Source of the DNA: Dehalococcoidia bacterium
GTDB taxonomy: Bacteria; Chloroflexota; Dehalococcoidia; Lucifugimonadales; UBA3495
Direction: 5' to 3'
NCBI GenBank assembly: GCA_965237745.1
Contig: CBDEGL010000003.1
Span: 13,470-77,469, forward strand
DNA: 64,000 bases
A program made the position numbers and the translations under genes. Shown here piece after piece: positions 1,097-60,175 of the stretch (position 1 is its first letter; every line of letters starts with the position of its first letter). Under the pieces are notes generated by a model that worked only from the letters and a program-made list of their open reading frames with translations, had not been told where the DNA came from and searched no databases.

Positions 1097-2608
1097 ATGG
1101 TGCGACGGATGTACAGAGTGGACGTATATCTGCGGGTCCGAAGGGCGGTGATGGTGGATGGGATGAGCCTGCGGGAAGCAGCCCGGACGTTTGGCCTGCA
1201 CCGGGACACCGTGCGCAAGATGCTGGCGTACTCCGTGCCGCCGGGGTACCGGAGACAGATCCCGCCCCGGCGTCCCAAGCTGGAGCCCTACACCGGCGTC
1301 ATCGACCGGATCCTGGAGGACGACCTCAGGCGTCCCAGGAAGCAGCGCCACACGGCCAAGCGCATCTTCGAGCGGCTCAGGGACGAGTACGGTTTCGACG
1401 GCGGATACACCACGGTCAAGGGCTGCGTCAGAGAGCATCGCCGTCAGACCAGGGAGATGTTCGTGCCGCTGTCCCATCCGCCGGGACAGGCCCAGTGCGA
1501 CTTCGGGGAGGCCCTGGTGGTCATCGGCGGCGTGGAGCGCAAGGCCCACTGCTTCGTCATCGACCTGCCCCACAGCGACGGCTGCTTCGTGAAGGCTTAC
1601 CCGGCGGAGACCACCGAGGCCTTCCTGGACGGCCATGTATCGGCGTTCTCCTTTCTGGGCGGAGTGCCCCGGAGCATCCTCTACGACAATACCAAGCTGG
1701 CCGTGGCGAAGATCCTGGGGGATGGCCGGCGTCAACGCACCCGCGCCTTCACCGAGCTGCAGTCCCACTACCTGTTCGAGGACCGGTTCGGCCGCCCCGG
1801 CAAGGGCAATGACAAAGGCAAGGTGGAGGGCCTGGTGGGGTACGCGCGCCGAAACTTCTTGGTGCCGGTGCCGTCCTTCGAGAGCTTCGATGCGCTCAAT
1901 GCCTACCTGGAGCGGCGATGCCTGGAACGAACGGACGCCCAGCTCAGGGGCCACACGGAGACCATCGGCCAGCGGATGGAGCGGGACCTGGACGCCCTGT
2001 TGCCGCTGCCGCCAGCAGCATACGACGCCTGCGAGAAGCAGGCGGGCCGGGTGAGTTCGCTGTCCCTGGTAAGGTACAGGACCAACGACTACTCGGTGCC
2101 GGTGGCCTACGGATACCGGGACGTGCTGGTTCGGGGCTACGTTGATGAGGTGGTCATCGGCTGCGGGTCCGAGGTCATCGCCAGACACATCCGTTCCTAT
2201 GAGCGGGACGATTTTGTCTACGACCCGATCCACTACCTGCCGCTCTTGGAGCGTAAGTCGGGAGCCTTGGATCAGGCCGCTCCGCTACAGGGCTGGGCTC
2301 TACCCGAGGAGTTCGGGACGCTGCGGCGTCTGCTGGAGTCCCGCATGGGACGGCGGGGTAAGCGGGAATACGTGCAGGTGCTCCGGCTGCTGGAGACCTT
2401 CTCCCAGCAGGAGGTGGCTGCAGCGGCAAAGGACGCCCTCCGGCTGGGGGCCATCAGCTTCGACGCCGTGAAACACCTGGTGCTGTGCCGGCTGGAGGGG
2501 CGGCCGCCCCGGCTGGATCTGGAGCTCTATCCCTACCTGCCACGAGTCCGGGTGAGCGCCACGTCCGCCGGGGACTACCTGACCTTGCTGTCGGGGAGAG
2601 CGGCATGA
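1097..2608 (+). CDS. istA: IS21 transposase IstA
   Basis: N-terminal HTH, AQCDFG, LYDNTK and KGKVEGLV DDE motifs; 503 aa. Confidence 0.95.
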   Translation: MVRRMYRVDVYLRVRRAVMVDGMSLREAARTFGLHRDTVRKMLAYSVPPGYRRQIPPRRPKLEPYTGVIDRILEDDLRRPRKQRHTAKRIFERLRDEYGFDGGYTTVKGCVREHRRQTREMFVPLSHPPGQAQCDFGEALVVIGGVERKAHCFVIDLPHSDGCFVKAYPAETTEAFLDGHVSAFSFLGGVPRSILYDNTKLAVAKILGDGRRQRTRAFTELQSHYLFEDRFGRPGKGNDKGKVEGLVGYARRNFLVPVPSFESFDALNAYLERRCLERTDAQLRGHTETIGQRMERDLDALLPLPPAAYDACEKQAGRVSSLSLVRYRTNDYSVPVAYGYRDVLVRGYVDEVVIGCGSEVIARHIRSYERDDFVYDPIHYLPLLERKSGALDQAAPLQGWALPEEFGTLRRLLESRMGRRGKREYVQVLRLLETFSQQEVAAAAKDALRLGAISFDAVKHLVLCRLEGRPPRLDLELYPYLPRVRVSATSAGDYLTLLSGRAA

Positions 2609-3388
2609 ACCACCGGTCGACGCTGCTATTGGAGCATCATCTGAAGGAGCTGAAGCTGCCCAGCTGTTCTCCGGGAATACGGGAAGCTGGCGGCCCAGTG
2701 CGCCGCCGAGGGTGTGGATCATCCCCGGTACCTGCTCAGACTGGCCGAGCTTGAGCTCATAGACCGGCACCAGCGCATGGTGGAGCGGCGGATCCGCGCC
2801 GCCCGCTTCCCCGCCGTAAAAAGCCTGGACACCTTCGACTTCCCGGCCATCCCGTCGCTGAACAAGGCACTGGTGATGGAACTGGCCCGCTGCGAATACA
2901 TCCAGCGCCGTGAAAACATCATCGCCGTCGGCAACAGCGGCACCGGCAAGACCTACGTGGCCCTGGGACTGGGTTTGGCCGCCTACCAGCGAGGGATGTT
3001 AGTGGGCTTCACCACGGCAGCCTCCCTGGTGCACGAGTTGCTGGAGGCCAGAGACGAGAGAAGGCTGCTCAATCTGCAGCGGCAACTGTCGCGGCTGGAT
3101 CTGCTGATCATCGACGAACTGGGCTTCGTCCCACTGTCCCGGACCGGGGCGGAACTGCTCTTCGAGGTCTTCAGCCAGCGCTACGAGCGGGGCTCCATCA
3201 TGGTGACCACCAATCTGCCCTTCGACGAATGGACCGAGGTCTTCGGCTCGGAGCGTCTCACCGGCGCGCTGCTGGACCGGCTCACCCACCACGTCCACAT
3301 CCTGGAGATGAACGGCGAAAGCTACCGCCTCAAGCGCAGCCGGGAGAACGCCGCGTCCCAAGCTCCAGACGATCGCGAGGAAGAATAG
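2605..3388 (+). pseudogene. istB: IS21 helper ATPase IstB, +1 frameshift near 2665
   Basis: ATGA overlap with istA; AGCTGTTCTCCGG here versus AGCTTCCTCCGG in the intact copy 2; GNSGTGKT and LLIIDELG in the downstream frame. Confidence 0.88.
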
Positions 3389-7293: not shown

Positions 7294-9192
7294 ATGGTGA
7301 TGGAACCTATGTCCGAGAGGACTGCCGCGGTGGGAAACTGCCTATTCTGTACAGTGCTCCCCAGCGCCCATCTGGTGGTTACCGTTGGCGGGTTGTCCAA
7401 GGACCAGGTGAAGCGCGGGTTGCGCGACCTGAAAGAGAGGGAATTTGTGGAGATCCACGAAATGGGAGCCCTCCTGCCGCCCGTTCCCGTGGTCGCTTGG
7501 ACGGAGCGGGGCCTGGACCATTTCGAGGCCACCGAGTGGCAGAGGGGCTGGTGTGGGGCCGACGGCCAGGGCAATCTGGCCCTCCACGATTCTGCCAAGG
7601 TGGAGGCGGTGAAGGGTGTTGCGCCCCTCTATGCGTCCGGAGGGTGGACACTGCAGCGAATCTTCTTCTTCGAACGGCAGCCGATGATCGCGGCCGCGGA
7701 GTACCGACACCCGGACCACCACGCTCCGGCGTACATAGTCTTCTGCTGGGTGTCCATGCTGGAGAACCAGCGTGAGCTGTTCGAGAGGATGCAGGCCATC
7801 GAGGAGGCCATGCAGGCCGTGTCCGTGGACCCAGACAACACATTCTGGCCCGCCGGCATCGCCCTCCTGGCTGCCAGCGAGTGGGGTGCGGCGCGGGCTT
7901 TGTGCCTGGCCCCTGCCGCCCTCGACGGGTGGGTGCATCGTGGTAGCGTTGCGGGGTGGTACCACGGCAGCGGCGGATGGCACTTGTCCGACGCCCTCTC
8001 GACCCGGACCGGCGAACCGCCGGAGGGAATGCCCCCGCTCCTGGATCCGCTATGCGAACTGCGGCCCCCGCTCAGCACCAGGAGGCTGGGGAGACGGAAA
8101 CTGGAGACTATTCTGACCGGCAGTCTCTGGGCCGGTCGCGGTGGCCACAAGCTCGTCGAGCTGCTGACCCTGGTGGCCATCTGCCCCTGCGGCTCCGTCG
8201 CTCACTATCAGCGCCTGGTGGGCGAGAGACCGGGAGTGATGGACACCAGGAAGCGGCTGAAGCGCCTGGAGAAAATGGGGCTGATCGAGATCGTGACCAA
8301 GCGCGGCCGGACCAAGAGGCGCAGGCGCTGGCCGAGGGACGTCCCGGTTACGCTCTCTGAGCGCCGCCAGGGGGCGCATCGCTATGCCGCGACGCTGGCC
8401 GGCCGGGTCCAGTTCTGCTATGTCCACGGGGGAAGGCCGGAGGACCTCTACCGCAGGACCAAGCTGGGCCGCCTCACGACCTTGGTCCGCCAGAAGGTGT
8501 TGCTCCATCTCCTGGCGCTGTCCTGGATGGTCCACATCCTGTATGCCCCCGGAGTGCGCCCGGTGGATCTTTCCGACCTTGCCACGCTGGACCACAACTG
8601 GAAGAAACTCCGCCCGGGGGCACTGGTCCATCTCCTGACGCTGTCCTGCGTGGTCCACCTCAACCATGCCCCCGGGCGAGCGTCGGCGGATGCCTTCAGT
8701 CTGGCCGAGCTGGCCCGCATCTGGACTCAGCTCCGCGAGGGCATGGTCGAGGACCGCTGGCTCTACCAGCACGAGGACATCGTGCACGAGATCTTTGGCC
8801 AGCTCCGCGAGCATGGTTGCGCCTTTGATCCCGGCTGGCAGGCCTGGACCACCCTGGCGGACGGGCGGCGCATCGAGCCGGACGGCGTGATTCGCGTGGA
8901 GACACCGTGGGGGCAATGGTGGTGCTACCTGGAGGTCGAGCTTTCCGACCGGACCTACGAGGACGTACTGCCGCGGTGCGAAAAGTACGGGTCGCCGAAT
9001 CGCTTGGACAATCTGCCGGTTCTCATCGCATGCCGCGATGACCAGGCCGAGGAAAATTTCCACCTGGCCGCGGCCGACTCGGAGCTCCCTCCGAGGATGC
9101 TCACCACGACCCTGAGACGGTTGCAGGAGGGCGGAATGTTCGGCCCCGGGGTGTGGTCCCGCTACGGCCGGCGGGTCACCCTGGCTCCATGA
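7294..9192 (+). CDS. Winged-helix + PD-(D/E)xK protein, replication-relaxation (Replic_Relax)-like
   Basis: AGGAGGT RBS; RKRLKRLEKMGLIE wing; C-terminal HE...IEPDG...YLEVELS...EKY...LPVLI. Confidence 0.65.
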   Translation: MVMEPMSERTAAVGNCLFCTVLPSAHLVVTVGGLSKDQVKRGLRDLKEREFVEIHEMGALLPPVPVVAWTERGLDHFEATEWQRGWCGADGQGNLALHDSAKVEAVKGVAPLYASGGWTLQRIFFFERQPMIAAAEYRHPDHHAPAYIVFCWVSMLENQRELFERMQAIEEAMQAVSVDPDNTFWPAGIALLAASEWGAARALCLAPAALDGWVHRGSVAGWYHGSGGWHLSDALSTRTGEPPEGMPPLLDPLCELRPPLSTRRLGRRKLETILTGSLWAGRGGHKLVELLTLVAICPCGSVAHYQRLVGERPGVMDTRKRLKRLEKMGLIEIVTKRGRTKRRRRWPRDVPVTLSERRQGAHRYAATLAGRVQFCYVHGGRPEDLYRRTKLGRLTTLVRQKVLLHLLALSWMVHILYAPGVRPVDLSDLATLDHNWKKLRPGALVHLLTLSCVVHLNHAPGRASADAFSLAELARIWTQLREGMVEDRWLYQHEDIVHEIFGQLREHGCAFDPGWQAWTTLADGRRIEPDGVIRVETPWGQWWCYLEVELSDRTYEDVLPRCEKYGSPNRLDNLPVLIACRDDQAEENFHLAAADSELPPRMLTTTLRRLQEGGMFGPGVWSRYGRRVTLAP

Positions 9193-9484
9193 GCCTCCGG
9201 ACGATACCACGTCGGCATCAGGACCGCCCTTTCCTACTGGGCACTGGGTGAGGGACGGGGCAGCAACCCACGGGTATACCTCTGTTACAGAAACCATAGC
9301 TAAACGGTGGTCTACCTTGGTGAGGCACGGGGCAGCCCCGTCAGGGGCCGAATTCGCCCTCCTTAGGGGGCCCTCCGGGGGGCCCTGACCGACGTCAGGC
9401 GGGTCGGGCGGCTCTCGGCACCACTGCCCCTGGTGCAGTGGCCATTGCGGCCGGCGGCCGTGGCCTCCGGGGCCGGCTCAAGAA

Positions 9485-10035
9485 AAGCGGAGGTCACTTT
9501 CGTGCCGATCGGCACGATAATCAGGGACATTGGGGCCGGGGCCGGCAGTCGGACATTTGTCTGACCCTGGGGGGATGAACTTGGTTGGCGACGACCCTTG
9601 CTGCTCCCGCAGCCGCATGAGCAGCCGGCTGAACCCCTTGCCTTCGGGGAGTTCCGTCAATATGGTTCCGGTGATTCTGGCCACCGATGCGTGCGGCTGC
9701 ACGGCCCGTTCGACCAATACGGTCCCACCGGCGTCTCCGTTCTCGACGGTCTGGGACTTGACCCAGCCGATGATCTCCCGGCCCAGGGTGATCGGCACCG
9801 TCTCCAGGTGGCCGGCCCTCGGATCGGCCCTCCTTTCCACTGCCGGCTCGTCGTCCAGTTCGAGGTCCTCGGGGTCGCCTTGCGCTCCCGCCACTGCGGG
9901 GGTGCCAAAGACTTCTGCCTTGGCGGCGTTCCGGCCCCGGGTAGATCCCCGCGTCTGCGGAAGAGTGCCTGGGCCACGGCGCCGGTGGCGTCGTCCACGG
10001 CGAGGAGCAGTACCAGTTTCGGTCCACGATCCTCC
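9485..10035 (-). pseudogene. Degenerate IS1202/IS481-like transposase remnant
   Basis: KLVLLLAVDDATGAVAQALFR matches the 53.5-55.1 kb transposase; GTCACTTT/GGACATT end-like motifs at 9.49-9.56 kb. Confidence 0.5.
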
Positions 10036-10194
10036 ACCCACGCGCAGCGATGTCGTCGTTCACATGTCCGTTCATGATGTCGGCACCGATGGTGATGCCG
10101 CCGAGGTCGTGCTCGACCATCCCGGATCACCGACACCGGATGCCATTGCGCCGCGCCGCCGGGAGGGCTCAGGGCGGCCCCTCCCGGATCACCG

Positions 10195-10812
10195 TCATTC
10201 CGGAATGTCATCGAGCTTTGTCAGCTCCTGCCCATGGTTCCCGGCGTCATGGTAGGCGTCCAAGGCGTGCCGGAACCCCCAGGCGGCCAGGGTCCCGATC
10301 CTGCCTCTGCCACCTTCCCCGGTTGCCAGGTAGTGGATGATGGCCAGGTTGCAGAGCTCGTTGTCGGCCAGCAGGTGTCCTATCCTACTCCATGACTCCT
10401 CGGGCCAGGTCTCGTTGTGAGGTATGGCTGATCTCCTCACGATCTTCCTGAGCCGGATTCCTTCCAGGACGGCCCTGAGGGTTCTCTCTCCCAGGTCCTC
10501 AAGGTGACCACCCAGGGCGCTGACCAAGGCATCGTCCCTGCGGTCCTCGAGGGACATCACCGACTCCAGGTCGCCCCCTGGCCCGGGGTGAGAGCGTGTC
10601 CAATCCCTGTAGTTCCCTCTCATCTCCACAAAGACATGGGCCATATCCTCGGCTTCCAGTATGGGCGCGATAACCTTGCCTCTTACCCTGGCGACCTCGG
10701 CGGCGTGGTCCTCTCCCTGTCCGTCGTCCCCCGTACCCTCTTGGCAATCGCCCGTGCTCCCGGGGTACAGCACAGGCCACCGGGCCAGCATCATCTCCAC
10801 AGGTTGGGACAT
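10195..10812 (-). CDS. Hypothetical protein
   Basis: AGGAGG RBS before MSQPVEM...; about 205 aa of normal composition. Confidence 0.55.
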   Translation of the reverse strand: MSQPVEMMLARWPVLYPGSTGDCQEGTGDDGQGEDHAAEVARVRGKVIAPILEAEDMAHVFVEMRGNYRDWTRSHPGPGGDLESVMSLEDRRDDALVSALGGHLEDLGERTLRAVLEGIRLRKIVRRSAIPHNETWPEESWSRIGHLLADNELCNLAIIHYLATGEGGRGRIGTLAAWGFRHALDAYHDAGNHGQELTKLDDIPE

Positions 10813-14148: not shown

Positions 14149-15373
14149 GTAGTTCAGCTATTTTGAATTGCTGGGTAAAGGGATTTCAGCTTGATGCGCG
14201 CGTCATCGGTGGTGAAGCGCCAGTCCACTCGCACCATGTCCCGGTTGCGCTGGTTCTGCCAGGCGTCAACTTCCCGGCGCAGCACCTCTTGATCAGGAAT
14301 CCGGCGGTCCAAGCACTGCCGGGCCAGCACTCCGATTTCAATTTCAGCCATGTTCAGCCAACTCCCATGTTTGGGGGTGTAGTGAATCTCCAGACGTTCG
14401 GCGATACGCCGCGCTTCCATAGGCTCGAAGGCCTCGTATAATGAGGCCGGATGATGGGTGTTCAGGTTGTCCATCACCAGCACAATCCGGTCCTTGTCCG
14501 GGTAGTCCTCGTCCACCAACTTCTTCACTTGGTGCGCCCAGTCCACTTTCGTCCGCCGGTCCGTCACTCCGACCCGCCGCCACCCTTCCAGCGGCGCAAA
14601 CAGCATGAACCGGTTGCTCACCCCGTTGCGCTCGTATTCGTAATCATACGCGACTGCCGATCCGGGGCGAGGCGGACGCGGCAGTCGCGTTTCCTTCACC
14701 TGCTGTTTGCTGGTTTCGTCCAAGCACACCAGGACTTCATTGTCTTCATAGGGACGGTGATAGACCTCCAGCACGTCTTCCATGGCCCACACAAAGTCCG
14801 AACTGCCTTCCGGCGGGATGCACCAACACTCTTTCAGCCAAGGCTTGAGTTCGTTTTTTTTAGCGTCTTGCGCACCGTCTCCGGGTGGATGCTCTCCACT
14901 ATCTCGCACTCCACCAGCCGGTCCGCCAATAATCTCAGCGTCCAACGGGCCCGGCCTTCCGGCGGTTCCCCGCAGGCCAGCGCAATCAAGTGGGCTTCCG
15001 CAGCGCCATCCAGTTTCTTTGGCCGGCGGCGTTGTTGCTCCTTACGCCCCAAGGCCGCTTCGATCCCTTCCTCCACGCAACGGCGGCGTATCCGTTCCAC
15101 TGTGGCGCTGGCGATCTCGAGGGACCGGGCAACCTCTTCGTCCGTCAGGCCTCCGTCTTTCCGCGCTTCATCGCTCAGCAACAGGATGCGTGCATGGGTC
15201 TGCTTGTACGCTGCTGCCCGTCCCTTGGAAACCAGGGCCTTCAGTTCCTGTTGCTCTTCCGTGGTCAGTTCGATACGGTACTTCTTAGCCGGCACGACCC
15301 CTCTCCTTGGATACAATTCGCCAATGCCGGCAGAATACACCAGTTGTGCCTCAATTCAATGACGTTCAACTAC
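14149..15373 (-). mobile_element. IS630-family element, two-ORF transposase (14834-15340 and 14154-~14860)
   Basis: TA flanks, imperfect TIR GTAGTT..TTGAATTG; CLDET, VMDNLNTH and SWLNMAEIE; A9 slippery run at about 14853-14861. Confidence 0.92.
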
Positions 15374-16655: not shown

Positions 16656-17680
16656 TTCTCCTCCGTTCATGTTCTGTGTCTGGAGCCGGTGTTCAGGCTT
16701 TGGTCCCGGCCAGCGGTCCGCTGATGCTGGTTCGAGTGCGAATAGTGAGTCACTGTCCGGGCCGGTTGATTTGTCCGGCAGACCCCTGGCTGCGGTCAGA
16801 CGTCTCTGTAGCGCCCGCCGGCCAACCCTTAGGAACCTGCATTCACATGGCGTTCACCCCCTGGTGGTTGTGGTGTCGTTGAAGCCTCACCGGAGCCGGG
16901 GCGGGGCGATAGTCCAGGAAAGCCCGCCCCGGCGGCCCCGAGGCCTGGCAGTCTCCGCCGTGGTTCCAGCGTGGCCGCGGTAGCGTTTCGCCGACCGGTT
17001 CCGCCGGGGCGCATCCCGGCCCCAGGCACGGGAGCGCCCCGCCGATATGGAAGGCTGACCCTGCCGCAGTGGAGATCAATGCTCCCTGGGTCATCAGCTT
17101 GAAGAGTCGACCGCGGTGTTTCGCGCATTCCATTGGTCAACCAAGACTGGAACTCAAGGCCGGCAGTAAGGGAGATGCGCTTTCCGTATACCCTCCGGCA
17201 GGCACACATGGGGCCGACGCTCCGTTGCCGGGACAGGGTCCGGCCGCCCCCTTCGGGGAGAGGTGACGACAACCGCCGTGCCGCCGGTGTGCGGACCAGG
17301 CGGGCACCGCGGTTGTTTGTGCTGCCTCAGGTCAAGAAAAGCGGATCAGCGCCTGGCCGACGGGTCTGAAGCAACGGGAATATTCCCGATTGCGGCTGAC
17401 CTTGTGTCTGCTTGGGCGAGCACTTCGCTTTCCTTGACTCCATACTCGGGGATCGCCAAGTCCGGCGTCAGAGCTGGACAACCGACATGATCGGGTCAAG
17501 GCCCGAGTCTGTGACGGCATGCGTCCTGTGTCCCGGTTCCGTCAACGCAGGCGGCGGGACTGAATTGGACCACTTGGGCGGATTGACCGTGCCGTTTCTG
17601 CGGTCCAGCTGGCCAGGACATTTTCTCTGGACGTCAGCAACAAAGTGGTGCAGCATCCCGTGGCCCTTGCCGGCAGGAAT

Positions 17681-17775
17681 CCATGGATCACTCCAGAGTG
17701 ACTACTAAGGTAGTAGTAGTCATATAAATATATCTATTTACTACTACTACGATAGTGGTCACTTCCCAGTGGCCT
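17681..17775. promoter_or_regulatory. Candidate replication origin: AT-rich inverted repeat between two TCACT-N4-AGTG boxes
   Basis: GATCACT-CCAG-AGTGAC, GTAGTAGTAGT, CATATAAATATATCTATTT, ACTACTACTAC, GGTCACT-TCCC-AGTGGCC. Confidence 0.65.
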
Positions 17776-17797
17776 ACGGCAGGGTTACCCGGGGTCG

Positions 17798-17830
17798 AAA
17801 AAGAAAAGCCGCCGGTGATTCACCGGCGGC
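17798..17830 (-). terminator. Intrinsic terminator of the rep-dnaB operon
   Basis: GCCGCCGGTG-ATT-CACCGGCGGC stem followed on the minus strand by TTTTCTTTTT. Confidence 0.8.
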
Positions 17831-17857
17831 CGTCCTAGTTCAGATTGGATGCCCGGA

Positions 17858-19213
17858 TCAGACGGAGTCGAACCGCACCAGGTTGTCGATGAACTCCAGG
17901 CGGATGCTTCCTGTTGGTCCCTTGCGGTGCTTGGCGATGATGATCTCGGCGATGTTCCTGGGGTATTCCTGTCCCGGGTGCATCTGGTTCCACTCCTCCT
18001 CGGTGGTGTAGACGTCCTCACGGTGGATGAACATCACCACGTCGGCGTCCTGCTCGATGCTGCCGCTGTCTCGCAGGTCCGAGAGCCTTGGTCGGTTGTT
18101 CGGCCGGTTCTCGACCATCCGGTTCAGCTGCGAGCAGGCGATCAGGGCCACTTTGAGATCGCCGGCCAGGGCCTTCAGCTCCCGGGATATCTCGGTTATC
18201 TCTTGTACCCGGTTGGACTGTCCCCATCGCTGCTTACCCTGCACCAGTTGCAGATAGTCGACCACCAGCAGGTCCAGCCCCCGCTCCAGCGCCAGCCTCC
18301 TGGCCTTGCCCCGCATCTCGACCATGCCCTGGTACGGGGTGTCGTCGATGAACATCGGGAGATCGGACAGCCGGCCGATGGAGTCTATGATCCTGTTCTC
18401 TTCCAGGTGGGTGTAGAGGCCCAGCCTGAGGCGGTGGGAGTCAATCTCGGCCTCCGAGGCCAGGATTCGCATGGCGAGCTGCTCCCGGGTCATCTCCAGG
18501 CTGAAGACACCGCAGGTCTGGCCGGATTTGGCGGCGTTGACCGCCATGTTGACCGCCATGCTGCTCTTTCCCATGGAGGGACGGGCGCCCAGGATGACCA
18601 GGTCGGCCCGCTGCATCCCTCCCAGGCATTCATCCAGGTCCGGGAACCCGGACATGATCGGCATCCCCGAGAACTCCGGGTCGGCCGCGGCCGACGCCTG
18701 CTCCTGCAGGTACTGGTCGTATATCTCTTTGAGCGGCACGAAGCCGCGGGGTTGGCCCGCGCCCCTGACGGTGAACAGGGCGTCCTCGGCCTGCCGCATG
18801 GTGGCCTCGATGTCCTCCGTGTCGGCGTAGCCGAGGTTCACGATCCTGTTGCCGGCGTCGATCAGTCTCCTCATGTTGGAGGTTCTGGAGATGACCTGCG
18901 CGTAGTCCTCGGCGTGGGCCGAGGTGGGGGTGATTGCAACCAGGTGCGACAGGTAGGCCATGCCGCCCACCAGGTCCAGCTTCTCCGTCCGGGCCAGCTC
19001 TCCGGCCAGGGTTATCTGGTCCACGGCCTGGTCGCGCTGGAACAGGCTCATGGCTGCATCGAAACAGAACTGGTTGCGTTCCCGGTAGAAGTCGCCCTGC
19101 TTCAGGAGCGGGACCAGGCGGGTCAGGCACTCTCCGTCGATCAGGATCGAGCCGAGCACCGACTCCTCGGCCTCAACGTCGTGGGGCAAAAGCTTCTCCG
19201 CGTAGGTGGTCAT
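17858..19213 (-). CDS. dnaB: Replicative DNA helicase DnaB (element-encoded)
   Basis: PHDVEAEESVLG, GARPSMGKS, VVDYLQL, SQLNR, DLRDSGSIEQDAD, AKHRKGPTG. Confidence 0.97.
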   Translation of the reverse strand: MTTYAEKLLPHDVEAEESVLGSILIDGECLTRLVPLLKQGDFYRERNQFCFDAAMSLFQRDQAVDQITLAGELARTEKLDLVGGMAYLSHLVAITPTSAHAEDYAQVISRTSNMRRLIDAGNRIVNLGYADTEDIEATMRQAEDALFTVRGAGQPRGFVPLKEIYDQYLQEQASAAADPEFSGMPIMSGFPDLDECLGGMQRADLVILGARPSMGKSSMAVNMAVNAAKSGQTCGVFSLEMTREQLAMRILASEAEIDSHRLRLGLYTHLEENRIIDSIGRLSDLPMFIDDTPYQGMVEMRGKARRLALERGLDLLVVDYLQLVQGKQRWGQSNRVQEITEISRELKALAGDLKVALIACSQLNRMVENRPNNRPRLSDLRDSGSIEQDADVVMFIHREDVYTTEEEWNQMHPGQEYPRNIAEIIIAKHRKGPTGSIRLEFIDNLVRFDSV

Positions 19214-19422
19214 GGCGTCGTCTCCTCAGTCCGGGGCAGCAGCAGTCCGGCGTTCCACAGGAGGTCGCTCAGGTCCTCTGCGGAAACCACCCGCACCAGC
19301 TGGGCCTTCTCTGCGTCGTCCCCGTGGCGCCAGACAATGAGGGCCTGGTCCCGGTAATCGGCCACGCCCAGCTCCAGCGGGGATGCGATGTCGTAGATGT
19401 ACCCGTTCTGTTGGTCCTCCAT
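19210..19422 (-). CDS. Small hypothetical protein coupled to dnaB
   Basis: GGAGGT RBS; ATGA overlap with dnaB. Confidence 0.6.
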   Translation of the reverse strand: MEDQQNGYIYDIASPLELGVADYRDQALIVWRHGDDAEKAQLVRVVSAEDLSDLLWNAGLLLPRTEETTP

Positions 19423-19438
19423 GGTCTGACCTCCCGCT

Positions 19439-19894
19439 TCACCAGGAGCGCCGCGCGAACCCGTTGCGGTAGGCCCTGATCTCAGGGGTGTGCGCCGGCG
19501 CTACCGCATCCGGGTCGTAGGCGTGGCGGCCCATGGCCAGCACGTTTCGCACGCCGCCCTCGACGAGTCTGAGCCGAGCGGCTATCTGCTTGGGTGTGAG
19601 CCCCTGGCCGGCCAGGGACCTGATGCTGTCGAGCAGATCCCTGGCTTCCTCGGACATGCCGGAGGAAGCCGTCCGGTCGCTGCGGGACGCGTCCCTGTCC
19701 CGGGCTTGTTCCTCCCGCTTCATTCGTTCGACCTTGGCTAGGTCCAGAGGCCACTCCTCGGGTCGCTGCTCCGTGTAGTATCGCGGGAGCCCGCCCGGCC
19801 GCTGGAAGCCCAGGGCCTCGAAGTACCGCTCGTGTTTCTGGATGTACTTTCGGATGTGTTCCAGGTTGTCCTTGTTGTCCTTCTCGGCGCTCAT
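19439..19894 (-). CDS. Hypothetical protein with C-terminal HTH
   Basis: GQGLTPKQIAARLRLVEGGVRNVL; start overlaps the rep stop. Confidence 0.6.
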   Translation of the reverse strand: MSAEKDNKDNLEHIRKYIQKHERYFEALGFQRPGGLPRYYTEQRPEEWPLDLAKVERMKREEQARDRDASRSDRTASSGMSEEARDLLDSIRSLAGQGLTPKQIAARLRLVEGGVRNVLAMGRHAYDPDAVAPAHTPEIRAYRNGFARRSW

Positions 19895-21033
19895 CAAGCC
19901 TCACTCTCCCTGCGGCGGCGGTCGGCGCAGTCCGGGCACCGTTCCTCCCCGTTGAACGTGGTGTAGGGGCTGCTGCAGTCCGGGCAGTACTCCACCTCCC
20001 TGCGGCCTGATTCCGTTAGTCTTTCCTCGTGGGGGGGTGGTCTTTCCAGTCCCTGTGCGGCCCCGGCTCCGGAGGAACCGGGTTCTTGCCCTGCCCTGAT
20101 CACGCTTATTTGGCGGAGCAGTTCCTGTTCGTTTTCGTAGTTGATGGAGAAATGGTGGATGGCGCTGAGCACGCCCCCTCTGAAGCTGCGGTCGTAGTAG
20201 CCCCGGTGCTCCGTGACCAGCGCCTCCACCCGGCCGCGGCGGGCCAGGTATTCCTGTCCCTCGTCCGACCCACTGGTCACTACAGAGTGACCGGTGGGCT
20301 CCTGAGTCGCTGATGAAGGTTTTGAATCCGGTGCTTCGTGGCTGTGAGGGTTTTCGTCCGGGGGGGTCTCAGCAGAGCCATCGGTCACTTCTGAGTGACC
20401 GATGGCTCCATGAGGCTCTGTAGAAGTGCTGTAATCGGCGTTTTCATAGCTGTGAGAGGTGGGTTCAGGTGGCTCAGCGACTTGGCCATCGGTCACTCCA
20501 GAGTGACCGATGGCCAAGTCGCTCTTGAGCCGTGCGATCTCTGCCCTGAGTTCTTCGTTCTCCCGGCGGGCCCGCGCCAGTGCTATCCAGGGGTCAGTGC
20601 CGGGTCTCTCCGTGGGCAGCGGCCTCCAGTTGCGCTGCTCGCCCAGGAAAATATAGGTATTGCTCTTTCGATCCTTGCCGCCCTTTCCCGGCCTCTTCTC
20701 TAGGACGCCCATGGATTCCATGAGGCGGATGTGATGCTCAGCTGTGTTCTTGCTTCCCAGGCCGGTGATCTGGCAGATGAAGGGAATCGCCATTGAGACC
20801 ACGCCCTTGGCGTTGGCGTAGCGGCTCATCCGGTCGCCAACGAATCTGATGGACATGGGCAAGTGACACAGCGACGCCTCTACGAACTGCACGACGTGCG
20901 GCAACCCTAAGGGAATCGTCGGATGGACATAGGGTTCTGTGGCGGCGACAGGGGTGTCGGCAGCGCCGTTGCCGTAGTTGGCCGGTGAGTCGGCTGAAGG
21001 GTCTGGGTAGGAGGAGTTGTGATCCTGCATCAC
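19894..21033 (-). CDS. Putative replication initiator (N-terminal winged helix, repeat linker, C-terminal Zn ribbon)
   Basis: RYANAKG...ICQITGLGSKNTAEHHIRLMESMGVLEK...SNTY; three GHSxVT repeats; CPDC...CPDC; upstream of dnaB. Confidence 0.7.
   Translation of the reverse strand: MMQDHNSSYPDPSADSPANYGNGAADTPVAATEPYVHPTIPLGLPHVVQFVEASLCHLPMSIRFVGDRMSRYANAKGVVSMAIPFICQITGLGSKNTAEHHIRLMESMGVLEKRPGKGGKDRKSNTYIFLGEQRNWRPLPTERPGTDPWIALARARRENEELRAEIARLKSDLAIGHSGVTDGQVAEPPEPTSHSYENADYSTSTEPHGAIGHSEVTDGSAETPPDENPHSHEAPDSKPSSATQEPTGHSVVTSGSDEGQEYLARRGRVEALVTEHRGYYDRSFRGGVLSAIHHFSINYENEQELLRQISVIRAGQEPGSSGAGAAQGLERPPPHEERLTESGRREVEYCPDCSSPYTTFNGEERCPDCADRRRRESEA
20269..20523. repeat. Three iteron-like palindromes GGTCACT-N4-AGTGACC at exactly 108-bp spacing inside the initiator gene
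   Basis: 20269-20298, 20375-20408 and 20476-20523 (the last with perfect 22-bp arms). Confidence 0.85.
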
Positions 21034-21313
21034 TCGCCCCCTATGCCGTGGACCCGTGGGTTACGTAGAGGTGCTGCAGGTTTCCGGAACTGCTGGGGAC
21101 TATGGCCGTCCCTGCGCGCCAGGAGGGGATGGGAGAGGCGTCTGCTGAAAAGGGGGTGTCCGGAAGCGGTGTATGCTGGCGGCTTCAGGTCATCGTAACC
21201 GTCGGTCGGCGCGTCTCCGGGCGACTCGTATACGTCCGCCACGTGGACGTATACCGGCGAAATGAACGGCTGGGAAACTGGATTTAGAGGGGGGTGTGTG
21301 CTATATTGAACAC

Positions 21314-23417: not shown

Positions 23418-23627
23418 TCACCGCCGCTCGCGGACATATTTTTCCAGGGCGTCGACGACCAGCGCGGTCATGTTGGTGTGTCCTTCCACAGCCATCACCT
23501 TCAGCTGATGGTGGAGGTCGCTCGGAATGAAGCAATGCAGGCGCGCGGTGTCCACCGCCGCTGCCTGGTCCACGAATGCGTCCCGCTCCACCTGATTACC
23601 GCGGTTGGGATTGCTTCTAATCGTCAT
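23418..23627 (-). CDS. Ribbon-helix-helix partition protein (ParG-like), copy A
   Basis: ARLHCFIPSDLHHQLKVMA...MTALVVDALEKY; overlaps the parA stop. Confidence 0.8.
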   Translation of the reverse strand: MTIRSNPNRGNQVERDAFVDQAAAVDTARLHCFIPSDLHHQLKVMAVEGHTNMTALVVDALEKYVRERR

Positions 23628-24255
23628 GGGTCAACCCCTCCAGTTCACCGATAATCTCGAGGATCTCGTTACGAGCCGTCTGGTCGCGGCCATCGACCAC
23701 CGAGTTCCCATCATTGATCGCGTTGGGGTAGGCGACGCGCTGGGTGGTACGGGCCTGCAGCACCGGGATTCCCAACTCGGTCAGCGCGACTTCGATCTGT
23801 CGGCCGAGGCGAGTGCGCGGCTGTGCCATGGTGATGACGAAAGCCGCCCTGGGAATCCCGTTGGTGGTTTTCTGACGAGCTCGTACTGCTGCCACGATGT
23901 CCGAGGCCGCCCAAACGTCCAACGGACTCGGCTTAACCGGTATCAGCACCAGGTCTGCAGCGCGCACGGCGTCGGCACTGGTCTTGGTGATCCCCGGGGG
24001 ACCATCGATGATGATCCAGTCATAGGCACGTTCCAGCGATCTGACCTGTTGGAGAAGGCCGGCCTTCCCCATTCCTTGGATGGCCAGGGACTCGGGCGAG
24101 GCCCAATCGCCGGCTGCCCAGTTTTGGGAGCTGGCTTGCGGATCGGCGTCAAGCAGCAGGACGTCCCCATTTTCCGCCAGCACTGATGCCAGGTTGGTGG
24201 CCAAGGTGGTCTTGCCAGTACCTCCCTTCTGATTCACGATCGCAACAACCGGCAT
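23617..24255 (-). CDS. parA: Short type-Ib ParA ATPase, copy A
   Basis: NQKGGTGKTT, LLLDADPQ, IIIDGPP; 212 aa. Confidence 0.93.
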   Translation of the reverse strand: MPVVAIVNQKGGTGKTTLATNLASVLAENGDVLLLDADPQASSQNWAAGDWASPESLAIQGMGKAGLLQQVRSLERAYDWIIIDGPPGITKTSADAVRAADLVLIPVKPSPLDVWAASDIVAAVRARQKTTNGIPRAAFVITMAQPRTRLGRQIEVALTELGIPVLQARTTQRVAYPNAINDGNSVVDGRDQTARNEILEIIGELEGLTHDD

Positions 24256-25851: not shown

Positions 25852-26061
25852 TTACGGCCGTGCCGCAAAATGTCCCTCGATGGCGGCAACCACCAGGTTC
25901 GTAATCGTGGTCCTCTCCTCCGCTGCCAGAACCCGCAGCCGACGGTGAAGGTCCGCCGGTATCAGGCAGTGGAGCTGCTCGGTGTCCACCGCCGCGGCCT
26001 GCTCCACGAAGGCAGCAGTGCGCTCTTCCTGACGCCGCTTGGGCCTACTGCTAAGGGTCAT
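25852..26061 (-). CDS. Ribbon-helix-helix partition protein (ParG-like), copy B
   Basis: AFVEQAAAVDTEQLHCLIPADLHRRL, paralogue of 23418-23627. Confidence 0.8.
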   Translation of the reverse strand: MTLSSRPKRRQEERTAAFVEQAAAVDTEQLHCLIPADLHRRLRVLAAEERTTITNLVVAAIEGHFAARP

Positions 26062-26689
26062 TTATCAACCTCTCCACCTCATCGCGCAGGGCGAGGATTT
26101 CGGTGCGGGCGGTCCTGTCCCTTCCTTCCAGCACCGACTTCCCCTCTATGACCGCCTGGGGATAGGCAACCCGGTCAGTGGTGCGGGCCTGCAGCACTGG
26201 CAGCCCATACTCGTCCAGCGCGGCATCGATCTGCTGGCTCAGACGGGAGCGGCGTTTGGACATGGTGATGACGAAGGCTGCCTGGGGTAGCCCGGCGGCA
26301 GCTTCCTGGCGCGCCTTCACCGCATCCACGATATCCGACACGGCCCACACGTCCCAGGGGCCGGGTTTTACCGGTATCAGCACCAGGTCGGCGGCGCGGA
26401 CGGCGTCGGCGGTGGTCCGGGCAATGCCCGGCGGACCGTCGATGATCACCCAGTGATAATCGGGTGCCCGGAGCCGCACGTCCTGGAGCAGTCGTCCTGG
26501 TTCTACACCCCTCACCTCAAGGCCCAGGAGAGGTTGGGCCCGGCTATCGGCCCAGTCCAGGGCGCTGCCCTGGCCATCGGCGTCGAGCAACAGCACTTGG
26601 AATCGATCCGCAAATGCGCAAGCCAGGTTGGTGGAGATGGTGGTTTTGCCAGTACCCCCTTTCTGGTTGACGACGGCGATGACCGGCAT
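26051..26689 (-). CDS. parA: Short type-Ib ParA ATPase, copy B
   Basis: NQKGGTGKTT, IIDGPP; 212 aa. Confidence 0.93.
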   Translation of the reverse strand: MPVIAVVNQKGGTGKTTISTNLACAFADRFQVLLLDADGQGSALDWADSRAQPLLGLEVRGVEPGRLLQDVRLRAPDYHWVIIDGPPGIARTTADAVRAADLVLIPVKPGPWDVWAVSDIVDAVKARQEAAAGLPQAAFVITMSKRRSRLSQQIDAALDEYGLPVLQARTTDRVAYPQAVIEGKSVLEGRDRTARTEILALRDEVERLINDP

Positions 26690-40585: not shown

Positions 40586-41807
40586 GTACTGAACCAAATC
40601 AGGATTGGCAGGGATAGAGGCGATGGAGTTTGCGTCTGGCGTCTTGGGCAGTGAACCGCCAGTTAATGGTAGCTCCTATCGCGTTCCGCTCTGACACGCA
40701 GGCGCTGACGGCTCTTTCCAGGCTGTCCTCATCTCCGTTGCGTCCGCGCAGGCAGGCCCGGGCCAGCACGCTGAACTCGATCTCCGCCATATTCAGCCAG
40801 CTTCCGTGCTTGGGAGTGTGGTGGAACTCCAGCCGCTTGGCGATGCGCCGGGCCTCGGCCGCCGGGAAAGTCTCGTAAAGCGAGGCCATCCGATGCGTGT
40901 TCAGATTGTCGAGAACCAGCCGAATCACCGGGACATCGGGGTAGGCCTCATCCACCAGCCACCGCATCTGCTGAGCGAAGTCCTGCATGGTGCGTTGCCG
41001 GGTTATCGCCACGTGGCGCCAGCCCCGGCGAGGCTCACAGGTGAGGAACAGGTTGCGCGTCTCTCCCCGCTGGTATTCGTAGTCCTCACGCCTCGGCCTC
41101 CCAGGCTTTGCCGGCAGCGGTTCCCTCACGTCGGCCAGCAACTGGGTGGAGGTCTCGTCAAAGCAGACCACCGGCCTCTGCGGATCGTAGGGCTCGGCGT
41201 AGAGATCCAGCACGTCCTCCATGGCCGCCACGAACTCTCCACCTACCTTGGGGATGCACCATTGTTTCTTGAGCCACGGCTTGAGCGTGTTTTTTTTAGC
41301 CGCAGGCGGACCGTCTCGGGAGATAAAGACTCCACCAATCCCAACTCCACCACCTTGCCCGCCAGGGCCCGCATGGTCCAGTGGTCATGACCGTCGGGCA
41401 CCGGGCTGCAGGCCAAGGCTATCAGGTGGGCCTCCACCCTTTCATCCACCTTTCCGGGCCGGTTGACCTGGTTATGGTGCCTCAGCACCTCGTCCAGTCC
41501 TTCCTCGGCATACCGCCGCTTGGTGCGGAACACGGTCCGCTCCGACACGTCCAGTGCGGTGGCCACCTGGGGGGCGGTCCAGCCCTCATCTATCTTGATC
41601 AGGATGCGGGCCCGGGTAATCGCCTGTGCGGAACTCCTCCCAGCCCTGATCATCTTCCTGAGCCGTCCCTTTTCCTGTGTTGCCAGCCGGACTCCGTACT
41701 TCTCCTGCACCATGACCACCTCACATCCCACAACCCTTCGTCTATCCCCAAGGTAGCATCCTGTCTGGGCTCACGTACTAACTGACAATGCCAGATTGGC
41801 CGAATAC
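40586..41807 (-). mobile_element. IS630-family element, two-ORF transposase (41243-41713 and 40599-~41290)
   Basis: CFDET, VLDNLNTH, SWLNMAEIE; A8 slippery run; TA flanks. Confidence 0.92.
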
Positions 41808-42592: not shown

Positions 42593-43375
42593 TTATGGGT
42601 TGTCTGATTCGTCCGAGGCTTGTGCTGCAGCGTTCTCCCTGCTGCGCTTGAGGCGGTAGCTCTCGCCGTTCATCTCCAGGATGTGGACGTGGTGGGTGAG
42701 CCGGTCCAGCAGCGCGCCGGTGAGCCGCTCCGAGCCGAAGACCTCAGTCCACTCGTCGAAAGGCAAATTGGTGGTTACCAGGATGGAGCCTCGCTCGTAG
42801 CGCTGGCTGAAGACCTCGAAGAGCAGTTCCGCGCCGGTCCTGGACAGTGGAACGAAACCCAACTCGTCGATGATCAGCAGGTTGAGCCGGGAGAGTTGCC
42901 GCTGCAGATTCAGCAGACGCCTCTCGTCCCTGGCCTCCATCAACTCGTGGACCAATGCGGCGGCGGTGGTGAAACCCACCGACATCCCCCTCTGGCAGGC
43001 GGCCAGGCCCAGTCCCAGGGCCATGTGGGTCTTGCCGGTGCCGCTGTTGCCGACGGCGATGACGTTCTCCCGGCGCTGGATGTATTCACAGCGGGCCAGT
43101 TCCATCACCAGTGCCTTGTTCAGCGATGGGATGGCTGGGAAGTCGAAGGTGTCCATGCTCTTGACTGCGGGGAAACGGGCGGCCCGGATCCGCCGCTCCA
43201 CCATGCGCTGGTGGCGGTCGATGAGCTCAAGTTCAGCCAGCCTGAGCAGGTACTGGGGATGATCCACACCCTCGGCGGCGCACTGCGCGGCCATCTTCCC
43301 GTATTCCCGGAGGAAGCTGGGCAGCTTCAGCTCCTTCAGATGGTGTTCCAATAGCAGAGTTGACCGGTCGTTCAT
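42593..43375 (-). CDS. istB: IS21 helper ATPase IstB
   Basis: GNSGTGKT, LLIIDELG, LLDRLTHH. Confidence 0.95.
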   Translation of the reverse strand: MNDRSTLLLEHHLKELKLPSFLREYGKMAAQCAAEGVDHPQYLLRLAELELIDRHQRMVERRIRAARFPAVKSMDTFDFPAIPSLNKALVMELARCEYIQRRENVIAVGNSGTGKTHMALGLGLAACQRGMSVGFTTAAALVHELMEARDERRLLNLQRQLSRLNLLIIDELGFVPLSRTGAELLFEVFSQRYERGSILVTTNLPFDEWTEVFGSERLTGALLDRLTHHVHILEMNGESYRLKRSRENAAAQASDESDNP

Positions 43376-48647: not shown

Positions 48648-48883
48648 TAGAATTCGATATAATTCCCAAATAACTACAATGCGACAGTCTAAGTCAGATA
48701 GTATTACGTTTTACATACATTAACGAGACATCATTTAACTACAATTGACACCTACGGGCATCGTTGTTACTCTGTAGCGAATTTTGCTGTTCGGTTGCCA
48801 ATTCGAAATTGCGGCAGCAGATATTCCACCTGGAACCATCTCCCGGAAATTTTGGCGCAGAATTCCCTTCGGAGGCGCGGTTT

Positions 48884-59465: not shown

Positions 59466-60068
59466 TAAACTAAAGCCAAAGTGGAATACACATTTACTGG
59501 GTGTTGAGAATCAGGCCGGGAGTTGCGCAGGAGGGCTTGATCCCTTGATTTCAGGATGGTTCGGCAACGCCGCTTCACTTCTTCCTTCCGACCGACCAGT
59601 CCAGCGAGGAAATGGCTGACTCGCTCCTGCACATTTGCCGAAGTTCCCAGGCACGTGTTCCCGGTGGCTCCTCCCTCGCCCAACCTCAGATAGCCTCATC
59701 TACGTTGAAGTCCGGGCTGTAGTCCGGCAGAACCTGCCCTCGTGAAAACGAGGGTTCACCAGCCGCAGTGCCAGACCCGGCGTCCGCAGGTACTCCCCGA
59801 CTGCCTCGCCTCGGTGCGCCGGCGCGTTGTCCCAGATCACATTCAGCGGTCCAGCGTGCCCCTTCCTCAACTGGTCCAGGAAGGCCGCCGAGGTCCCGGA
59901 GTTGCTGTTGCCCTCCAGTTCCATCCACTCCACCTCACCGGTCTCCAGGCACACCGCCGAGTAGTAGCTGGCCTTCTCCCCATACCGCGGGCTGGTGGAG
60001 TCCACCAACGCAGGCTTACCCTTCAGCACCCACTTGCCCCGCAGTTCCGCGTCCGCCCGGAAGTGGGT
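59466..60068 (-). mobile_element. IS630-family C-terminal remnant with its terminal repeat
   Basis: HFRADAELRGKW...NVIWDNAPAH...YSPDFNVDEAI; end TAAACTAAAGCCAAAGTGG. Confidence 0.75.
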
Positions 60069-60175
60069 GGTCAACAAACGGGCGGTTTCTCCATCATAAA
60101 CATCATCATCATCATCAACATGGTGATGGTGCCCAACAAACGGGCGTTTTATATCCAGCAAGGCCCAGTATACGA

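Follow-up and report, generated by a model that had tools for sequence, protein, structure and literature searches.

A probable vegetative origin detached from its initiator gene in the rep-dnaB cassette of Dehalococcoidia extrachromosomal elements

The site and its operon

The DNA analyzed here (the window) is a 64-kb stretch, G000:C4:13470-77469, of the 80,484-bp extrachromosomal contig C4 in a five-contig, 5.19-Mb Dehalococcoidia assembly. Its nearest public relatives are metagenome-assembled genomes of Dehalococcoidia. The minus strand carries an operon comprising, in order, a rep gene for a putative initiator of 379 amino acids (aa), open reading frames (ORFs) of 152 and 70 aa, dnaB and an intrinsic terminator. 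A symmetric site at 17686-17774, 33 bp past the terminator, reads on the plus strand as box, 6 bp, (GTA)3 arm, 19-bp AT core, (TAC)3 arm, 6 bp and box, with the mirror arrangement of the arms on the minus strand, on the opposite side of the core. We consider this site a probable element of a replication origin. The features of the site and the operon are as follows, with Rep class I distinguished further below from a second class.

17686-17703, unstranded: distal Rep-type box GATCACT-CCAG-AGTGACT, at the outer cassette edge, with 2 mismatches to GGTCACT-N4-AGTGACC
17710-17720, unstranded: left trinucleotide arm GTAGTAGTAGT, which is (TAG)3 5'->3' towards the core on the plus strand
17721-17739, unstranded: AT core CATATAAATATATCTATTT, 19 bp, 17/19 A/T, not palindromic itself; proposed melting site
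17740-17750, unstranded: right trinucleotide arm ACTACTACTAC, which is (CTA)3 5'->3' away from the core on the plus strand
17757-17774, unstranded: proximal Rep-type box GGTCACT-TCCC-AGTGGCC, with 1 mismatch to GGTCAC-N6-GTGACC
17831-17807, minus strand: intrinsic terminator of the rep-dnaB operon, a hairpin with an 11-pair stem (9 GC pairs) followed by a T-run
17858-19213, minus strand: DnaB replicative helicase, 451 aa (Pfam DnaB_C 8e-93, DnaB N-terminal 3e-27)
19210-19422, minus strand: 70-aa ORF, kept only in the closest cassettes, with no Pfam or NCBIfam match
19439-19897, minus strand: 152-aa protein, all-helical, present in all class I cassettes
19894-21033, minus strand: 379-aa putative initiator (class I Rep), of a family without a Pfam or NCBIfam model
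20269-20523, unstranded: three palindromic boxes inside rep, with cores at 20275-20292, 20383-20400 and 20491-20508, spaced by exactly 108 bp
21034-21156, minus strand: upstream edge of the conserved cassette and presumed promoter region; homology to the cassettes L001, L002 and L003 ends at 21151-21156

The sequence description given in the original prediction, covering boxes, arms, AT core, terminator and intragenic matches, was confirmed in every detail. The box pattern TCACTNNNNAGTG gave 9 strand-hits, vs 0.40 expected, a number reached in 0/100 shuffles (shuffle maximum 3). The site is also one of two stretches in the 64 kb with a 40-bp segment of <=25% GC. The other such stretch, 48698-48748, lies just upstream of a gene for an SBP_bac_5 solute-binding protein (48764-50716), and is presumably the promoter region of the ABC-transporter cluster opened by that gene. 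Exact (GTA)3..(TAC)3 pairs number 3 in the 5.19-Mb genome, on C2, C4 and C5, with 0 on the 4.81-Mb chromosome, and C3 holds a degenerate fourth copy. All four extrachromosomal contigs carry both the palindrome (degenerate on C3) and a Rep paralogue.

Folding of the site as single-stranded DNA gave -21.4 kcal/mol (z = -5.3; 0/200 shuffles as good). Together with the position directly after a terminator, this strong fold would suit a hairpin acting as RNA or single-stranded DNA, whether as a second terminator, a single-strand initiation site or an origin of transfer. Such a role is extremely unlikely, since the operon already ends in a canonical terminator, an Rfam scan of the site returned no family at threshold (the best were chance miRNA-hairpin matches, with 25 bits vs 80 needed), and no relaxase was found among the window ORFs scanned. 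A hairpin would also leave unexplained the dyad boxes shared with rep and the iterons that accompany the palindrome in other phyla.

Cassette conservation and Rep boxes

Six class I cassettes were compared: that of the window (C4), that of C2 in the same assembly (L001), L002, L003, L131 and L132. The order rep, 152-aa gene, (70-aa gene), dnaB, terminator, palindrome is kept in 6/6 of these loci. The assignment of the site to a replication cassette, made originally from the window alone, thus holds, and the downstream AT palindrome accompanies the homologous operons throughout. Identity to the window across the other 5 cassettes is 43-68% for Rep, 45-89% for the 152-aa protein and 68-91% for DnaB, and the 70-aa ORF is 80-81% identical in L001, L002 and L003, with no match in L131 or L132. 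A six-way alignment of the site (A4, mean column identity 75%) revealed that the box half-sites, both arms and the ATATAT.TATAT core are largely invariant. The third repeat of the left arm varies, reading GTAGTAGTTA in L131 and starting with GTG in L132. The spacing between the two flanking boxes ranges from 67 to 76 bp across the six loci, and therefore suggests no fixed helical phasing.

In the five comparisons, similarity to the window at the DNA level runs out at 17651, 17651, 17657, 17681 and 17688, which marks the outer edge of the distal box, and no conserved protein was found downstream of the palindrome among the class I loci compared. The C2 cassette carries an insertion of ~4.3 kb (L001 6700-10980), with ORFs of 525, 525 and 257 aa, which splits dnaB from the terminator-palindrome piece; going by the ORF sizes, our guess is that it resembles an insertion sequence. 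The 184-bp terminator-palindrome piece is still 86% identical to the window. Because homology ends at its outer edge, no downstream protein is shared and the C2 piece has been kept despite the insertion, the palindrome is, on these sequence comparisons, the terminal element of a 3.5-kb replication module (17651-21156). In the public-run contigs X1, X3 and X8, summed depth is ~10-fold lower left of 17702 and short contigs end inside the palindrome; this drop fits a shared cassette edge and is no evidence by itself. A search for the palindrome across the class found it in 2/401 genomes, including that of the window; the second match has a GC-rich spacer and is a different element.

The boxes inside the window rep read GGTCACT-N4-AGTGACC, and one of them widens to a perfect 48-bp palindrome (20476-20523). 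They fall in codons of a linker predicted to be disordered (predicted local distance difference test, pLDDT, <50), where they encode a repeated (A)IGHSxVT(D/N)G peptide, AIGHSxVTDG in the window. Matching IGHSxVT-D/N-G peptides, compared at the peptide level only, occur in further members of the Rep family, and one subfamily has IAHSELSNG as its linker repeat. At the DNA level the codons are paired as mirror images: the window type combines Ile ATC with Asp GAT, and the C1, L131 and L132 types combine Ile ATT with Asn AAT. Because of this mirror-codon pairing, and of the perfect 48-bp palindrome in coding sequence, the codon comparison shows selection on the DNA dyad of the boxes, not on the peptide. 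A chromosomal Rep paralogue (L011 9580-9891, G000:C1:4528079-4528390; 37% identity) contains four linker palindromes, with spacings of 108, 108 and 54 bp.

A second class of Rep, 25-29% identical to class I, is represented by P0004 on C5 (L012 9599-10999, G000:C5:91598-92995) and by an 82%-identical copy on the minus strand of C3 (G000:C3:44104-45501). The class I box, GGTCAC-N6-GTGACC, is found on C4 and C2, and the class II box, TAGCCNGGANACGGCT, on C5 and C3. The class II linker dyad, TAGCC-N-GGA-N-ACGGCT, also flanks the class II palindromes, 1.8 and 3.9 kb downstream of rep. Matches with <=1 mismatch were counted per contig, with the following results.

Class I box: C2, 5 (4 in rep, 1 at the palindrome flank); C4, 4 (3 in rep, 1 at the flank); C3, 0; C5, 1, in an unrelated place
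Class II box: C5, 2, and C3, 2 (on each, one in rep and one at the flank); C2, 0; C4, 0

On the matching contigs, every box match falls in rep or at a palindrome flank. This bears out the claim that the boxes match the intragenic palindromes of the linked rep, and comparison between gene and origin shows that the match tracks the Rep class (class I on C4 and C2, class II on C5 and C3), with L003 as the exception. The arms, (GTA)3-5 and (TAC)3, are unchanged between the Rep classes. Recognition of the boxes by Rep, and of the arms by some other factor, would be expected to give such a pattern. A 9-mer of the C5 palindrome flank is also shared with a ~111-bp (37-aa) repeat array of seven copies at L012 14558-15313; this array is part of a minus-strand repeat-protein gene and was dropped as a candidate.

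The C-terminal part of class II Rep is a DnaA_N domain (PF11638, E 9.7e-11), which shares 73% identity over 78 aa with the N-terminal end of the chromosomal DnaA (C1:2245851-2246084) and looks like a recent capture of domain I of the host initiator by a plasmid initiator. DnaA domain I is a helicase-recruiting, self-associating module. The 20-kb C5 locus yielded neither dnaB nor the 152-aa gene, and the 152-aa and 70-aa genes were found nowhere on C3 and C5, while dnaB was not searched genome-wide. Loading of the element's own DnaB, as first proposed for the site, is thus not general, given class II palindromes without dnaB or the 152-aa gene in the 20-kb C5 locus searched. On a simple reading of these gene contents, class I would bring its own helicase, and class II would borrow that of the host via the captured DnaA module.

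The boxes inside rep are the better matches, accounting for all 7 perfect class I boxes, and they are regularly spaced. In the passages on lambda in PMC3349717, an origin within the initiator gene is established, and iterons without the AT-rich part inhibit replication, so detached Rep sites can regulate. The box array inside rep might on these grounds be the true origin, in the style of lambda O or RepA_N, leaving the palindrome as an accessory Rep site with a role in copy control or handcuffing, as an operator, or as a fork or transcription barrier at the operon end. We regard this as distinctly unlikely. No 40-bp segment of <=25% GC is present inside rep, and in STY4528-type genes of other phyla (see below) it is the trinucleotide palindrome itself that lies inside the gene. 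The arms and AT core are conserved whatever the Rep class, and a pure Rep operator would not need them; a sigma-70-type promoter scan at the site gave 0 matches. The intragenic boxes are probably, by analogy with these systems, extra Rep sites and relics of an origin once wholly inside the gene. They may now serve in copy control by titration, handcuffing or autoregulation, a role made plausible by the inhibition of lambda initiation by extra iterons that lack the AT-rich part. A "bipartite origin", in which the intragenic sites would titrate or loop to the palindrome, is a hypothesis.

Our preferred reading, which we hold to be probable, places the unwinding and start site of the vegetative origin (oriV) of the 3.5-kb cassette 17651-21156 at 17686-17774, and takes this origin to be of the iteron type and detached from its initiator gene. 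At the sequence level, repeated sites matching the boxes of the linked rep gene lie beside the putative opening site, which is an AT-rich element (17/19 A/T). The detrended cumulative GC skew of C4 has its minimum at 30 kb, and the palindrome is at 31.2 kb. The term "detached", taken over from the original prediction, is apt, as the origin element of STY4528-type elements and lambda sits inside the initiator gene.

Several observations weigh against this reading. The box core is invariant within class I, so the co-variation amounts to one contrast between two classes. The three intragenic dyads of L003 read CCATTGCTCA-N8-TGAGCAATGG, a symmetric change (peptide PIAHPELSNG), and its palindrome flanks stay GGCCAC..GTGACC. 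This locus (9083-10436 and 7795-8044), in a 1.27-Mb contig, has dnaB split between two frames and may be a decaying integrated copy. The chromosomal C1 paralogue has no trinucleotide palindrome within 20 kb, and dnaB and the 152-aa gene were likewise not found there. Rep has no match to any known initiator family by Pfam, NCBIfam, PDB profile or hhalign. GC skew agrees in 1/3 replicons, the C2 palindrome being at the maximum and that of C5 far from either extreme. Near-identical boxes are present on C2 and C4 in one assembly, for which incompatibility is expected if one cell holds both; C2 and C4 may be from different strains. The exact trinucleotide palindrome was found in 0/2 annotated STY4528 plasmids examined, and the primase step of the mechanism set out below is based on polarity and a paper on other phyla.

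The palindrome in other phyla

One genome per species was scanned with the pattern GTAGTAGTA-N10-40-TACTACTAC, giving at least 114 stretches over 596 Gb, and 80 loci were taken from among the matches listed. Raw matches mean little, because the uniform-composition expectation over 596 Gb is estimated to be of the same order. The matches listed nevertheless depart from randomness, and among them the spacer is >=75% AT in 28/52 loci with GC >=40%, where random windows drawn from these loci would be expected to give 1.7. A Pfam scan covered 61 ORFs from 27 loci, also among the matches listed. Within this listed set, 10/27 loci show the context of SPI-7 / ICEHin1056-type islands, with DUF2857 on one side of the palindrome and AcaB/PFL_4669 on the other, and in 8/27 the palindrome is in the ORF right after a ParA gene.

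The palindrome-containing ORF matches the NCBIfam "STY4528 family pathogenicity island replication protein" in 6/18 tested, two of them above the curated cut-off. In STY4528-type genes the palindrome is in frame as SSS-YINK-TTT (SSSYINKTTT), within a variable linker after the winged-helix (HTH_36) domain. The in-frame copies in STY4528-family genes of Gammaproteobacteria islands are located as follows.

~2001-2050 of each locus, unstranded: in-frame palindrome in L024, L026, L045, L089, L090, L015, L037, L014, L081 and L062

Element-specific repeats accompany the palindrome in several loci. In L067 a 12-bp iteron, CCGTCTACCCGA, is present 27 times, in three clusters on both sides of the palindrome (1362-2120), and one ORF after the ParA gene reads through all copies, so its low-complexity stretches are translated iterons. 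Repeated boxes flank the palindrome in L088 and L090. The stretches up to 250 bp from the palindrome, 14.6 kb in total over 30 loci, contain six perfect DnaA boxes (in L090, L014 and L032), vs 0 in the remaining 94.8 kb of these loci. The boxes form pairs within ~170 bp of the palindrome, and the L090 pair (2105-2113 and 2142-2150) is inside a perfect 24-bp inverted repeat. Element-specific iterons, an AT spacer and DnaA boxes are, as sequence features, hallmarks of vegetative origins. For SPI-7 / ICEHin1056-type islands, passages of PMC2258188 propose from sequence a putative oriV with iterons in an AT-rich region.

Comparison of window Rep with STY4528 proteins gave an hhalign probability of 0.65%, no NF040582 match at E <=0.01 and no HTH_36 match at Pfam E <=1. 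A full-text literature search of open-access papers and bioRxiv for the arm sequences with origin terms did not find the element.

The ParA-linked loci raise the alternative of a partition (centromere) site, as iteron arrays are also found at centromeres, or of a recombinase or telomere resolvase site, as large palindromes are typical of resolvase targets; the window itself holds two ParA genes, resolvases and an integrase. We consider this very improbable. In 6/6 class I loci the site accompanies rep-dnaB rather than parA or a recombinase, and the window ParA genes are each paired with their own 69-aa partner, 6-9 kb from the site. The core has no dyad symmetry, and 19 bp is long for a crossover region. 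A telomere resolvase target would combine a perfect central dyad with a linked protelomerase; contig C4 is continuous through the site, and a scan of 50 window ORFs, which are not every ORF, revealed no protelomerase-like family. The two tandem pairs of ParA (212 aa) and 69-aa genes, at 23418-24255 and 25852-26689 on the minus strand, represent a duplicated partition module.

Proposed mechanism and related systems

In the mechanism that we propose for the site as an origin, dimers of the 379-aa winged-helix Rep would bind the two palindromic boxes, as suggested by the sequence match and the co-variation. The 19-bp AT core between the boxes would then melt, followed by placement of one DnaB hexamer per strand. 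This would be the element's own DnaB in class I, perhaps brought via the 152-aa protein, and the host helicase in class II, via the DnaA domain-I module fused to Rep. Each helicase would run 5'->3' outward across (CTA)3, whose repeats would serve as DnaG initiation triplets, and the first primers would run back over the core to become the two leading strands, a step that we propose from polarity only.

DnaB translocates 5'->3', and the outward CTA strand is the one that a bubble-loaded DnaB hexamer would ride. Because this strand has its CTA repeats in the 5'->3' direction outward from the core, we favour tandem primase start sites as the role of the arms. The trinucleotide d(CTA) is described, in passages of PMC2978363, as a DnaG initiation trinucleotide common to Firmicutes and Proteobacteria. 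Alternatively, the arms may be read by DnaA tethered by Rep, or by Rep itself holding the single strand, by analogy with the reports for RK2 and F discussed below. More broadly, (GTA)n/AT/(TAC)n could be an initiator-independent bidirectional start cassette shared across phyla by Chloroflexota plasmids, SPI-7-type islands and ParA-linked plasmids. Tandem d(CTA) downstream of the helicase would then set DnaG primers at mirror-image points, or a universal binder of single strands would read a 3-nucleotide register. We offer this generalization tentatively, and think it rather doubtful.

The arms had originally been likened to DnaA-trios. The trio consensus is given in passages of PMC8287927 as 3'-GAT-5', with a minimum of three repeats and a DnaA box 0-16 bp from the trios. 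On each strand the site carries (TAG)3, a run of at least three tandem NAN triplets that equals the consensus at the stated minimum. If the site were an origin with the arms as DnaA-trios, a filament of host DnaA-ATP on the single-stranded (TAG)3 of each strand would open the core. Conservation of the arms across unrelated Rep classes and phyla, pointing to a universal host factor, favours this version, as do the DnaA domain I of class II Rep, which could tether host DnaA through self-association, and the perfect DnaA boxes within 250 bp of the palindrome in 3/30 loci from other phyla.

We nevertheless regard the trio version as fairly unlikely. The nearest DnaA boxes of the window (<=2 mismatches) are 156 and 294 bp off, instead of within 0-16 bp of the first trio. 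By the E. coli consensus, which may not be that of the phylum, 7/7 Dehalococcoidia loci lack any DnaA box with <=1 mismatch up to 300 bp from the site. The polarity is also opposite: the strand from box to core reads GTA/TAG, with the TAG repeats running 5'->3' towards the core, whereas in Bacillus subtilis the strand opposite the trios reads 5'-CTA from the DnaA boxes outward, towards the AT-rich region (PMC10201434). The DnaA-trio label should be dropped, or kept as mere resemblance. Cassette membership, the box match and detachment thus stand from the original interpretation, and the DnaA-trios and own-DnaB loading as a general rule do not.

The preferred reading, of a detached iteron-type origin, was compared with known systems. 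As in lambda, the predicted initiator sites are dyad repeats in the coding sequence of the initiator's own inter-domain linker, an AT-rich stretch serves as the presumed opening site, and the initiator gene is followed by helicase-recruitment genes. The lambda ori lies inside gene O, with iterons and AT-rich part together, according to the same passages of PMC3349717. Unlike in lambda, the boxes here are in the gene and the AT palindrome, with two more boxes, is 2.5 kb downstream, after dnaB. It is twofold symmetric, has trinucleotide arms, and is accompanied by the element's own DnaB. Window Rep also has no sequence similarity to the lambda initiator, with the Pfam phage O family and HTH_36 unmatched.

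The iteron plasmids RK2 (TrfA) and F (RepE) likewise combine a winged-helix Rep with repeated Rep sites by an AT-rich unwinding element containing short motif repeats, and their Rep is reported, in PMC4081077 and PMC10602881, to hold the double-stranded iterons and one unwound strand together. Here, in contrast, the boxes are palindromes and not direct repeats, Rep is unrelated by sequence, and the unwinding element is a symmetric (GTA)n/AT/(TAC)n that is the same for unrelated Reps.

The palindrome itself has a parallel in STY4528 (NF040582) of SPI-7 / ICEHin1056-type islands, where the (GTA)3-4/AT/(TAC)3-4 arrangement likewise has element-specific flanking boxes, the replication protein starts with a winged-helix domain and continues into a variable linker, and the islands carry a DnaB of their own. 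Their palindrome, unlike that of the window, is in frame inside the gene, and the proteins are not detectably homologous to window Rep. The basal unwinding system of B. subtilis oriC (DnaA boxes, DnaA-trios and a DnaD recognition element) similarly places tandem TAG/CTA triplets beside an AT-rich opening site. Our site differs in lacking an adjacent DnaA box, in its inverted polarity, in the symmetric presence of the triplets on both sides, and in having Rep boxes as the flanking double-strand sites.

RepA_N plasmids carry their origin iterons inside the rep gene, and the winged-helix N-terminal domain of the RepA_N initiators of staphylococcal plasmids (4pql, 4pt7) is among the fold matches of window Rep. 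These matches are weak and generic (E 6.8e-3 and 2.3e-2), and there is no Pfam match. In our view the Rep family is new, and so is this variant of origin architecture, which recurs across phyla; what it adds to the iteron-type origin is the symmetric trinucleotide arms.

AlphaFold2 modelling of Rep from a 12-sequence alignment predicted two confident domains, a winged helix (45-130) and a helical domain (257-313), separated by a coiled coil (148-175) and a disordered linker (177-256), and followed by a zinc ribbon (347-378). A Foldseek search with this model retrieved generic winged-helix proteins only, none at E <=0.001, and the Rep profile found nothing below E 0.4 among PDB sequences. The Rep family comprises 84 representative clusters at E <=0.001 among 1.84 billion proteins, and a larger collection contains 761 homologues, all unnamed proteins of 364-485 aa. 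Across the phylum, Rep was found in 2/401 genomes, including that of the window, the other match having E 8e-4. Close DNA relatives among PLSDB plasmids are limited to one 187-bp dnaB-like match, tblastn of Rep against plasmids gave no match, and a scan of metagenome contigs with the Rep alignment returned only two short contigs (1.8-2.0 kb).

The DnaB protein contains both N- and C-terminal domains and passes the TIGR00665 equivalog model with 471.7 bits vs a cut-off of 385.25. The predicted structure of the 152-aa protein has a mean pLDDT of 73.9, and Foldseek returned 8 rows, every one with E >5 and thus no fold match. Prediction of the complex of DnaB with the 152-aa protein gave a score of 0.58, with 0.00 for the best of 3 controls, partner pLDDT of at least 71, and runs agreeing in at least 57% of contacts. 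The mark used for such predictions is reached by 58/80 solved complexes and 2/110 mismatched pairs, with 7 of those 80 and both mismatches scoring <=0.60. The complex prediction thus lends weak support to DnaB binding by the 152-aa protein, which is a possible helicase adaptor.

If the preferred reading is right, the 3.5-kb unit of rep, two small genes, dnaB and origin is a candidate minimal replicon for Dehalococcoidia-class Chloroflexota, and the palindrome provides a compact, searchable signature that marks likely origins in unrelated mobile elements, including SPI-7 / ICEHin1056 islands. It raises the question of whether primase, DnaA or Rep reads a 3-nucleotide register on both strands of a plasmid origin. 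Were the start-cassette proposal true, origin-specific priming in theta replicons would be directly mappable.

The window also contains two IS21-like copies, at 1097-3388 on the plus strand and 42593-44883 on the minus strand, each with IstB and a 503-aa transposase bearing a Mu-transposase C-terminal domain, and DDE_3 transposases at 14154-14945, 40599-41231 and 59700-60224.

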